Source of the DNA: Escherichia phage PA16
DNA length: 62,708 nt
Strand: one strand, 5' to 3'
Sequence record: KP682377.1
Shown: positions 15,001-18,000 of the stretch, piece after piece
Numbering within the stretch: position 1 is the first letter of the stretch
Layout: each line of letters starts with the position of its first letter
Program-made: the position numbers

Positions 15001-18000
15001 TGAGATAAATCATCATGGTATAGCGGCGTATTGCTCCCATCTTCCTGATGACGTTGACATTGATGAAATGGAAAGGGAGATGAAGCAATGACCATCTACA
15101 TCACTGAGCTAATAACAGGCCTGCTGGTAATCGCAGGCCTTTTTATTTGGGGGAGAGGGAAGTGAACGATAGCTACCGACAGTTTGAAAACTGGTGGTCA
15201 AAAGACAAAAGCCAGTTCACGGGAGACGATGAATTAAAAGAGTTTGCCTGGGTGATATGGCAGGCATCGCGCTCTGCTATTGAACTGGATATCGACTGGC
15301 CCGAATCGAATGACGACTTTTGGAAAGATGGTGAAGAAGGTGCTTATGCGATGGGTTATGAGGATGGGCGTGACAAAACGGTAATTGCAGTAATGAAAGC
15401 CATCAGGGCCGCAGGAATCAAAGAAAAGAATTTCGATTAAGCAAATATCACTTCAATAAATCGCTTTTAAGGCATCACAATCGCTCTGTAGCGAGGTAAA
15501 CGCGTGCAAGGCATGCCAATAAGCAGCGAGAATGAAAAATGCGTCAGAATGTGTTTGAGGAGGTTTTAAGAAATGAGTACGATAGCTGAGCTTGTCAGGG
15601 CTAATTTTCGTGAAGAGTTGGTGCGTTGGTATCGGTATCGTTCATCGTCCAGTTTGCCGCTTGATGAGTTGTATGAGCATTCACCTGCCGCACGACGCTA
15701 TCCGCGTGACCGTGTTCTTCGACGGTTGTTCAAACTCAACAATGAGTTTCAGCGCAACAGAATTATCCGGAGTCTGGATTTAAAGTGAAGGAGTGAGCAT
15801 GAGCGACCTATCATTAACCCAGCCAAAGCTAAAAGAATGTCCGTTTTGCGGCGGTAATGCTCGTCTGTGGGTTGAGGCCGGAATAAATATTGATGTGTGG
15901 GGCTATGCAGAATGTGACCTCTGTGAAGCCAGGGGGGCATGGGCACCATCAGTTGCTGCGGCGGCTGAAAAATGGAACCGGAGAGCAGGAGATGAAGCAA
16001 ACCTTTCTGCTTCGCAACGAAGCAATCAGAAATAACGCCATAGACGCCATTCTCTCACTACCCATCGACGACAAGTCACCCCACGAAGTCCACGTTAAAG
16101 AACCCAAGCGCAGCAAAGCGCAGAATGACCGTATGTGGCCGATGCTGAACGATGTTTCGCGTCAGGTGCTATGGCATGGTCAACGGCTGGCGCCGGAAGA
16201 CTGGAAAGACCTGTTCACTGCCCTGTGGCTTAAGACCAAAAAACTGGAGCAACGAAGTGTGCCTGGTATCGACGGTGGCGTTGTCATGCTTGGCGTGCGT
16301 ACCAGCAAAATGCGGAAGGCCAGCATGACTGAGCTTATCGAAATCATGTTCTGGTTCGGCTCAGAGCGCAACGTGCGGTGGAGTGATGACTCCCGGCGAG
16401 AGTATGAATGGTCACAACGAAAAGGTAGGGCTGCATGACTATCAAATCAAATACGCCAGCACACGACAAGGACTGCTGGCAAACGCCGCTTTGGCTTTTT
16501 GATGCACTGGATATTGAGTTTGGATTCTGGCTGGATTCGGCAGCGAGCGACAAAAATGCTCTGTGCGCTCACTGGCTAACTGAGGCCGACGACGCGCTCA
16601 ATTCTGAGTGGGTAAGCCACGGTGCAATCTGGAATAACCCACCGTACAGCAATATCAGGCCGTGGGTGGAAAAAGCCGCTGAGCAGTGCATACAACAGCG
16701 ACAGACGGTAGTTATGCTTGTGCCAGAGGATATGTCAGTCGGATGGTTCAGCAAGGCTCTGGAGAGTGTTGACGAAGTTCGCATCATCACTGATGGACGG
16801 ATTAATTTTATCGAACCATCGACAGGGCTGGAGAAGAAGGGAAACAGCAAAGGCTCCATGCTGCTGATTTGGCGACCGTTCATCAGTCCTCGACGAATGT
16901 TTACTACTGTATCCAAAGCGGCATTGATGGCGATCGGGCAGGGCGTCAGGAGGGCGGCATGAGGCGACAGCGACGAAGTATCACCGACATCATCTGCGAA
17001 AACTGCAAATACCTTCCAACGAAACGCTCCAGAAATAAACGCAAGCCAATCCCAAAAGAATCTGACGTAAAAACCTTCAATTACACGGCTCACCTGTGGG
17101 ATATCCGGTGGCTAAGACATCGTGCGAGGAAAACAAGGTGATTGACGCGATGATTTATTCGGGGCTATATTCCTCACGCGCCAGCAAAATCTGGCGTCGG
17201 GATTGGCGTCCTGGATAGAGACCGCGACAGATACACGCCGCGAGCGTGTTTTTTATTGTCGTATGCACGCGCACATCTGAATTATGGTGGGCTGTGTGGG
17301 GGCGGAGAGATCCGCGCCGGTCGGTTTCCCGGTTACGCCAACCCTGCACAGTTCACCACCAGACGATTGGCGTCGTCGGTGGTGAGTTATTAAGAAACCA
17401 CCAGAGGGCGTCATTATGACAACTCAAATTTCTGTTGAAACTCTCTCCCCGATCACCCATAACCAGATTCCTGTTATTACCACCGAACTTTTGGCGCAGC
17501 TTTACGGCACTGAGCCGGTGCGTATTCGCCAGAATCATCATGAGAACAAAGTACGCTTCGTTGAAGGGAAACACTTTTTCAAAGTTGTTGGTAATGACCT
17601 TAAAGAATTGCGGGTAGCTTTAAACTACTCACAAAATTTGCGGGTTACTTTAAGTAACTCACAAAATTTGCAACCATCTTTAAGAGGGTTACAAATTTCC
17701 CCGAAAGCCCGCTCCCTCATACTCTGGACAGAACGAGGCGCAGCCCGTCACGCAAAAATGCTCGAAACTGATCAGGCGTGGGATGTGTTCGAAAAACTGG
17801 AAGACTGCTATTTCAGCCAGTGCGAGAAAAATACTGGCAAACAAGAGAAGAAGCTCAACGGGCTTTCCGCAAAAGAAACAGACAGCCTTGTATGGCTGTG
17901 GGATTATGCCAACCGCTCACAGGCATTGTTCCGTGAGTTGTATCCCGCATTAAAACTGATTCAGTCTGGCTATTCCGGCATATGCCACGACTACGGCTAT

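Follow-up and report, generated by a model that had tools for sequence, protein, structure and literature searches.

The 62,708-nucleotide sequence of Escherichia phage PA16 (record KP682377.1), the whole of which is referred to here as the window, carries in its nin region two small genes that flank ninB, and these are very probably independent accessory genes: one for a Lar-family protein whose expected target is type IA restriction, and one for the orphan GATC methylase M.EcoVT2Dam, both expected to be delayed-early. The three open reading frames (ORFs) at 15799-16962 all lie on the forward strand exactly where an earlier note on this DNA had placed them, and the lar-like and methyltransferase genes stand on either side of ninB as it had described; the family matches of these ORFs go far beyond what chance would give. 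The finding is real but ordinary, and is already known. RefSeq uses the names 'Lar family restriction alleviation protein' and 'phage N-6-adenine-methyltransferase', and both genes are named in curated phage records as well; lar is among the recognisable accessory genes of Shiga toxin (Stx) phages (PMC3430580), and the Stx-phage methylase is in the literature (PMC6602927, PMC3342100), the VT2-Sakai enzyme having been cloned and its specificity reported. A G6/G7 frameshift within the lar-like gene is a new detail. The features of the locus are as follows.

15799-16035, forward strand: lar-like gene, 78 amino acids (aa); PF14354, TIGR03655, PHROG 599
15932-15937, forward strand: G6 homopolymer inside the lar-like gene; the G7 allele found elsewhere is a frameshift
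15992-16438, forward strand: ninB, Orf-family recombination mediator; PF05772
16435-16962, forward strand: phage N6-adenine DNA methyltransferase (M.EcoVT2Dam), 175 aa; PF05869, TIGR01712
16959-17141, forward strand: ninE; PF05322, E value (E) 8e-44
15117-15140, forward strand: terminator-like hairpin and T-run, in a tR2-like position

The Lar-like protein

The lar-like product begins MSDLSLTQPKLKECPFCGG and carries a CPFCGG motif at residues 14-19 (nucleotides (nt) 15838-15855). The earlier note had called it Lar-like, and membership of the Lar family is confirmed by curated hidden Markov model thresholds, with matches to PF14354 Lar_restr_allev (E 1.8e-10; 41.3 bits against a cutoff of 28.6) and TIGR03655 anti_R_Lar (E 4e-17; 62.3 bits against a cutoff of 39.6); PHROG 599 is matched as well (E 9e-39). 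A profile search begun from three sequences recovered 699 relatives, compared with six for a single-sequence, word-based search, and nearly all of the 699 have PF14354 and are named either 'Lar family restriction alleviation protein' or 'RalR toxin'. Across an alignment of 84 sequences of the family, residues C14, F16, C39 and C42 are invariant, and K12, P13, P15, C17, G18, W59 and R62 are at least 90% conserved. The zinc-ribbon pattern CxxC...CxxC is made up of C14, C17, C39 and C42 in a protein whose length falls within that of the family (about 55-85 aa), and the W-N-(K/R)-R signature of the C-terminal helix is present as W59-N60-R62, the family consensus being AWNRR. These zinc ligands and the C-terminal motif are kept across the Enterobacterales and beyond.

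An AlphaFold2 (AF2) model of the protein has a mean predicted local distance difference test score (pLDDT) of 79, rising to about 90 over residues 11-60. Strands 21-27 and 33-39 form a beta-hairpin that joins one CxxC knuckle to the other, and residues 52-60 form a helix bearing the W-N-R-R motif; the predicted fold is a two-stranded zinc ribbon with one helix. A sequence search of the PDB returned marginal eL43 zinc-ribbon matches alone, which agree with this fold, and Foldseek found nothing significant for the model (best E 0.54), nucleases included.

The sole characterised member of the family, Rac Lar (RalR) of E. coli K-12, is 36% identical to the window protein over 58 aa. As cited in PMC4041452 and PMC11482910, King & Murray 1995 found that Rac Lar alleviates type IA (EcoKI) restriction and enhances modification; the same Rac protein is also reported to be a non-specific DNase (endonuclease) toxin held in check by a small RNA (sRNA) antitoxin, RalA (PMC4041452). 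The two proteins share the PF14354/TIGR03655 family, the CxxC...CxxC ribbon, the C-terminal WN(K/R)R helix, a similar size and a place among prophage-borne early genes. They differ in that the window gene lies in the nin region and overlaps ninB, whereas the Rac gene sits beside recT in a leftward operon, and in that the 15-aa C-terminal tail of the window protein is encoded by the ninB overlap. Moreover, the window protein fails the RalR equivalog model NF007260 (27.6 bits against a cutoff of 113), and the window holds neither a RalA homologue nor any trans complementarity of at least 14 nt to the lar mRNA region, with no Rfam match between 15500 and 17100. Since the RalR model fails and a RalA-like antitoxin RNA is missing, the protein is best filed, on sequence grounds, as a member of the Lar family and not as RalR. 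For another Lar homologue, that of phage Bas63, an apparent effect was seen on hosts whose type I systems are not intact (PMC11482910).

A Lar-type function would be useful to this phage, because its EcoKI sites (7, against 7.6 expected) are near the expected number, which makes it a normal type IA restriction target, and because no Ral homologue is present at the lambda ral position in the pL operon, where the ORF belongs to an unrelated family of unknown function. Lambda Ral, a small early protein, relieves type IA restriction and makes de novo modification faster (PMC12707154), and by analogy this is the role to be expected of the window Lar-like protein, although Ral has no sequence relationship to it and is encoded in the pL operon adjoining N.

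Allelic variation in the lar-like gene

The window has six consecutive G residues at 15932-15937, whereas 933W and Min27 have seven. The product of the G7 allele is 56 aa long and keeps the zinc ribbon while losing the conserved C-terminal helix. G7 is present in 22 of the 491 E. coli records that carry the lar-like gene, spread over several serotypes and including three independent assemblies of EDL933; these records and assemblies rule out a sequencing error made in 1999 as the source of the allele. Among 98 contigs from IMG/VR, 73 have G6, 20 have GGGTGG, an allele that breaks the G run and changes Gly to Val, and 5 have G7. Thus 933W, the best-studied phage of the group, is without an intact Lar homologue, and experiments on a 'Stx phage Lar' must choose their allele with this in mind.

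The methyltransferase

The earlier call of an N6-adenine methyltransferase is upheld by matches to PF05869 (E 6e-65; 218.4 bits against a cutoff of 28.1) and to the TIGR01712 equivalog (265.9 bits against a cutoff of 97, over profile positions 1-165 of 165), and by DNA identity, the gene being 100% identical at the nucleotide level to the dam gene of VT2-Sakai, which encodes M.EcoVT2Dam. The catalytic-type motif NPPY occupies residues 68-71 (nt 16636-16647), and an alignment of 86 homologues shows N68, P69 and P70 unchanged throughout, with Y71 conserved at 90% or more. M.EcoVT2Dam is described in PMC6602927, with a citation of Radlinska & Bujnicki 2001, as 'known to target' GATC, and given the DNA identity and this reported specificity the window methylase would likewise be GATC-specific. 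It is the same gene as that of M.EcoVT2Dam, with a product of about 175 aa, the NPPY motif and the reported GATC specificity, and no difference was found between it and M.EcoVT2Dam with the HP1/T1 phage Dam methyltransferases (PF05869, TIGR01712). The protein-identical gene of phi24B encodes an expressed antigen, and its transcript level changes significantly, in the form of a rise, on prophage induction (PMC3342100).

The AF2 model of the methyltransferase (mean pLDDT 89.9) has a Rossmann-like fold, with NPPY following a strand at residues 64-68. A sequence search of the PDB gave no solved structure for this methylase family, and among solved folds Foldseek places the PCIF1/CAPAM methyltransferase domains closest (query-normalised TM-score (TMq) about 0.6; E 7e-5), followed by CamA, with E. 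coli Dam a weak match at TMq 0.33-0.35 and E 0.03-0.3. The best solved-structure matches are adenine-N6 methyltransferases. We note that PCIF1/CAPAM is a eukaryotic cap-specific adenosine methyltransferase (the cap m6Am writer), and is closer in fold to the phage methylase than is bacterial Dam.

The description of this protein as 'Dam-family' stands as regards its activity and its Pfam name, and falls as regards kinship to the E. coli/T4 Dam family (D12 class, PF02086), to which there is no match: Pfam at E of 0.01 or below gives PF05869 only, and the fold scores a TMq of about 0.34. The methylase is of the small HP1/T1 phage type and no relative of E. coli or T4 Dam. The target and product (G-m6A-TC) are the same as for those enzymes, but the window protein is smaller by about 100 residues and lacks a separate DNA/target-recognition domain.

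The phage has 161 GATC sites, compared with 244 expected from base composition or 276 from a Markov model. There are GATC-free stretches of up to 2.8 kb, among them one of 2.3 kb (14621-16932) that spans the lar-ninB-dam genes; GATC-free regions have also been described in prophages of Shiga toxin-producing E. coli (PMC6602927).

Locus layout and expression

The lar-like gene has a Shine-Dalgarno sequence, AAGGAG, at 15789-15794 ahead of its ATG at 15799. The PF05772 match of ninB (E 9e-49; profile positions 1-131 of 131) starts from M1 at the ATG at 15992, and since the match begins at this first residue, the longer versions of ninB annotated from 15905 and 15893 simply extend the one ORF upstream. 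The lar-like gene overlaps ninB by 44 nt, and the ninB/dam and dam/ninE junctions are both ATGA overlaps, which suggests translational coupling.

The hairpin at 15117-15140 has an 8-bp stem with 6 G-C pairs, is followed by TTTTATTT, and separates the replication genes from the nin genes, just where lambda has tR2. By analogy with lambda, the presence of such a terminator upstream would place lar-like, ninB and dam in the delayed-early pR operon and make their expression dependent on N antitermination. Host Dam is still needed for stable lysogeny of 933W even though the prophage has dam, according to the citation of that work in PMC3342100, and this fits a prophage dam that is silent in the lysogen.

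The proposed course of events is thus that both genes, lying downstream of the tR2-like terminator, would be expressed after N antitermination at infection or induction and be silent in the lysogen. The Lar-like protein would act, by homology to Rac Lar, on restriction-modification enzymes of type IA (the EcoKI family), such that unmodified phage DNA would be methylated instead of cut, a combination of restriction alleviation and modification enhancement. M.EcoVT2Dam would maintain the full methylation of fast-replicating phage DNA when host Dam cannot keep pace; the packaged DNA would thereby be protected from MutH-dependent cutting and from MboI/DpnII-type enzymes, and the next host would treat it as fully methylated.

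Mosaic relationships of lar and dam

The window is a Stx2a-converting lambdoid phage of E. coli O157:H7, of the VT2-Sakai/Sp5/PA series (Sepvirinae, Traversvirus). Its gene order runs int/xis, pL operon, cI/cro, O/P, nin region, Q, tRNAs, stx2AB, lysis and terS/terL/portal. The 1701-nt region around lar-like, ninB and dam is 100% identical to those of VT2-Sakai, Stx2-converting phage II, the PA-series Stx2a phages, and prophage Sp5 of E. coli O157:H7 Sakai. Slight differences from PA4 in the first 35 kb make the window a sibling of that phage.

The earlier note had the Lar-like protein and the methylase working together as a functional pair, and this is not supported by their distribution, in which the two genes occupy independent mosaic slots. 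Among 50,697 phage records, the dam allele is present in 243 and the lar allele in 118, and 113 have 80% or more of the 1701-nt region in a single match. This lar allele therefore nearly always accompanies dam, as expected for genes about 400 bp apart, and more than half of the dam-bearing phages, for example Sf6, SfI, HK140 and lambda-like phages, are without it. Conversely, in Salmonella prophages this slot holds a Lar homologue of 49% identity that likewise overlaps ninB by 44 nt, and ninE and ninF come straight after ninB in these prophages, which have no methylase gene there. The occurrence of dam without this lar allele in many phages, and of lar without dam in Salmonella, argues that the two positions are separate mosaic slots, and that the genes have presumably become neighbours through lambdoid mosaicism and do not form an obligate functional pair. 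The frameshifted lar-like gene of 933W and EDL933 is a further point against such a pair. The last 18 residues of the Salmonella Lar homologue are identical to those of the window protein because this tail is encoded, in another frame, by the conserved start of ninB; the identical tails mark a mosaic junction inside the lar-like/ninB overlap.

The GATC array in terS

29581-30387: terS; PHROG 370, E 5e-125
29717-29769, forward strand: 12-bp tandem repeat (the GATC array) in the linker-coding part of terS, 4.4 copies

The GATC array to which the earlier note had tied the methylase does exist, with GATC at 29722, 29734, 29746 and 29758. It codes for IDHE-IDHK-TDHE-IDHD, each GATC arising from a GAT-CAT (Asp-His) codon pair, and lies in the linker that follows the N-terminal domain of the small terminase. 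It forms one cluster of four (C/T)GATCAT units, with no second cluster and with the neighbouring GATC sites at 29494 and 30667. A specific link between array and methylase is not borne out, since dam and this type of terS assort independently, both being present in about 117 records, dam only in 126 and this terS only in 104, and since the array occurs in a phage without a methylase. That phage, Shigella phage 75/02 Stx, has an identical four-copy array and no methyltransferase among its 76 annotated genes; it gave no tblastn match to the window Dam, and its ORFs of 120 aa or more contain no (D/N/S)PP(Y/F/W) motif. The gene that follows Q in 75/02 Stx was considered as a replacement Dam and rejected, being that of a DnaD_N/helix-turn-helix protein. 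Since host Dam can always provide methylation, the link nevertheless keeps a small probability. An Oslovirus Stx2a phage has three copies of the array.

Several defective Stx2a prophages (e.g. LC727841.1) have, directly after the GATC array, a 96%-identical copy of the IS629/IS1203-like element found in the late region of the window (1310 bp, 24350-25659, with an ALIL frameshift pseudoknot at 25208-25324). A recombination boundary at the array end in these prophages was considered and rejected; the junction is that of an IS629-like insertion, with loss of the remaining terS. The TerS homologue of Klebsiella phage RothC (35% identical) has no GATC array, and its equivalent linker-coding stretch contains three TGCGAAT(T/A) repeats, two of them arranged as the palindrome TGCGAATTCGCA, which hints that the linker position of terS may be a place for phage-specific DNA repeats.

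Alternative explanations

The reading of the locus as two independent accessory genes has several points against it. The Lar-like protein is only 36% identical to the one characterised member, which is itself also reported as a toxin, and our search of the literature for experiments on Stx-phage Lar homologues found none; its gene is frameshifted in 933W and EDL933, and hence dispensable at least there. All known hosts are Dam+, such that the benefit of a phage GATC methylase is unproven, and the GATC depletion of the genome looks like selection against the site and not protection of it. To call the methylase 'anti-restriction', as had been done, goes beyond the evidence, that being just one possible role for a GATC methylase in Dam+ hosts. 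Finally, the expression timing is drawn from gene order and one consensus terminator match.

It is highly unlikely that the Lar-like protein is a DNA-cleaving toxin like RalR, acting in a type I toxin-antitoxin system or as a weapon against host or competitor DNA and not in anti-restriction. The Rac protein of the same Pfam family is the reported RalA-controlled endonuclease, and NCBI names many family members 'RalR toxin'; but the window protein falls far short of the RalR equivalog, the window has no RalA homologue or complementarity and the locus no Rfam match, the predicted structure is a bare zinc ribbon with one helix and without a significant nuclease match, and the gene belongs to a lytic operon in which it overlaps ninB. 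We consider it very unlikely, too, that the lar-like gene is a decaying, functionless passenger and that the methylase serves physiology, countering SeqA sequestration or MutH nicking of under-methylated DNA, with no part played against restriction. GATC depletion in enterobacterial phages is classically ascribed to Dam/MutH, an attribution reportedly made by Deschavanne and Radman in 1991, and GATC-cutting restriction enzymes are not known to be common in E. coli hosts, which counts for the physiological role. For the passenger there are the frameshifted alleles of 933W, EDL933 and the other G7 records, and the fact that 933W still forms plaques on K-12 strains (PMC3752737). About 95% of alleles nevertheless keep an intact frame, the zinc ligands and C-terminal motif are widely conserved, and the 49%-identical homologue holding the same slot in Salmonella argues for purifying selection.

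The methylase might instead mainly serve packaging, as in P1, with the four repeats in the 5' part of terS being, or lying within, pac, terminase recognition or cleavage there needing adenine methylation, and the phage enzyme securing that methylation in late infection. The pac site of P1, as described by Sternberg and Coulby, reportedly has GATC-containing hexamers clustered to either side of the point where it is cut, inside the small-terminase gene. The P1 Dmt/pac system and the window have in common a phage GATC methylase, headful packaging and clustered GATC hexamers inside the small-terminase gene. Moreover, pac sites are often within terS, and that of P1 requires Dam methylation (PMC12707154); 933W has terminally redundant virion DNA and is an efficient generalized transducer (PMC3752737), which implies headful packaging from a pac site, and a literature search for a mapped pac site in 933W-type phages found none. 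The four (C/T)GATCAT units are spaced 12 bp apart in a genome otherwise depleted in GATC, where about 0.02 such clusters would be expected under independence, and a distant Klebsiella TerS homologue has different short repeats at the same linker position. The array is, however, a coding tandem repeat in which one unit is copied, and its four GATC sites do not count as independent events; close relatives have either 3 or 4 of these units. The window has one such cluster, with the next GATC about 900 bp away, where P1 has two flanking the cut site; dam and this terS assort independently, the array being found without a methyltransferase gene in 75/02 Stx; and host Dam would methylate the array anyway. 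A main role of the phage Dam in packaging is accordingly unlikely, and the narrower proposal, that the array at 29717-29769 is a methylation-gated pac element of 933W-type Stx phages as in P1, is very doubtful. Two independent accessory genes flanking ninB remain by far the more probable account of the locus.

Other features of the genome

20419-20571, forward strand: 50-aa remnant of a second methyltransferase; C-terminal PHROG matches

This ORF lies between Q and the tRNA genes. Its only matches are to the C-terminal ends of the methyltransferase PHROGs 6952, 67 and 3008, and it is annotated as 'putative DNA methylase' in the PA4 record. It is the leftover of a second, different methylase, a full version of which related Stx phages may have.

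Just after ninE there are Rfam matches to c4-a1b1 (17165-17217), isrK (17178-17254) and C4 antisense RNA (17280-17363), followed by an Ant anti-repressor gene (17416-18150); the segment 17165-18150 is a P1/P7 immI-like antisense-controlled anti-repressor module within the nin region. Further Rfam matches lie in the regions 22269-22528, 59416-59590, 62212-62300 and 7898-7956, and comprise STnc100 and the anti-stx2 sRNA AsxR right after stx2B, sok antitoxin RNA of a hok/sok-type module at 59416-59590, sRNA-Xcc1 toward the right end of the window, and the lambda cIII thermoregulator.

Significance

Beyond correct annotation the finding matters little. Even so, the persistence of a GATC methylase in a phage whose hosts are Dam+ raises the question of why such a phage keeps its own enzyme while its genome is depleted in the target site. 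The location of pac in the generalized-transducing Stx phages is worth an experiment: if the terS array were a methylation-gated element, the nin-region methylase, in phages that have it, would make packaging more efficient at the late stage, as host Dam becomes limiting, and there would be an epigenetic control point for Stx-phage production and generalized transduction. Alleviation of type I restriction by a Stx-phage Lar protein, for its part, would bear on the spread of toxin phages between E. coli lineages.

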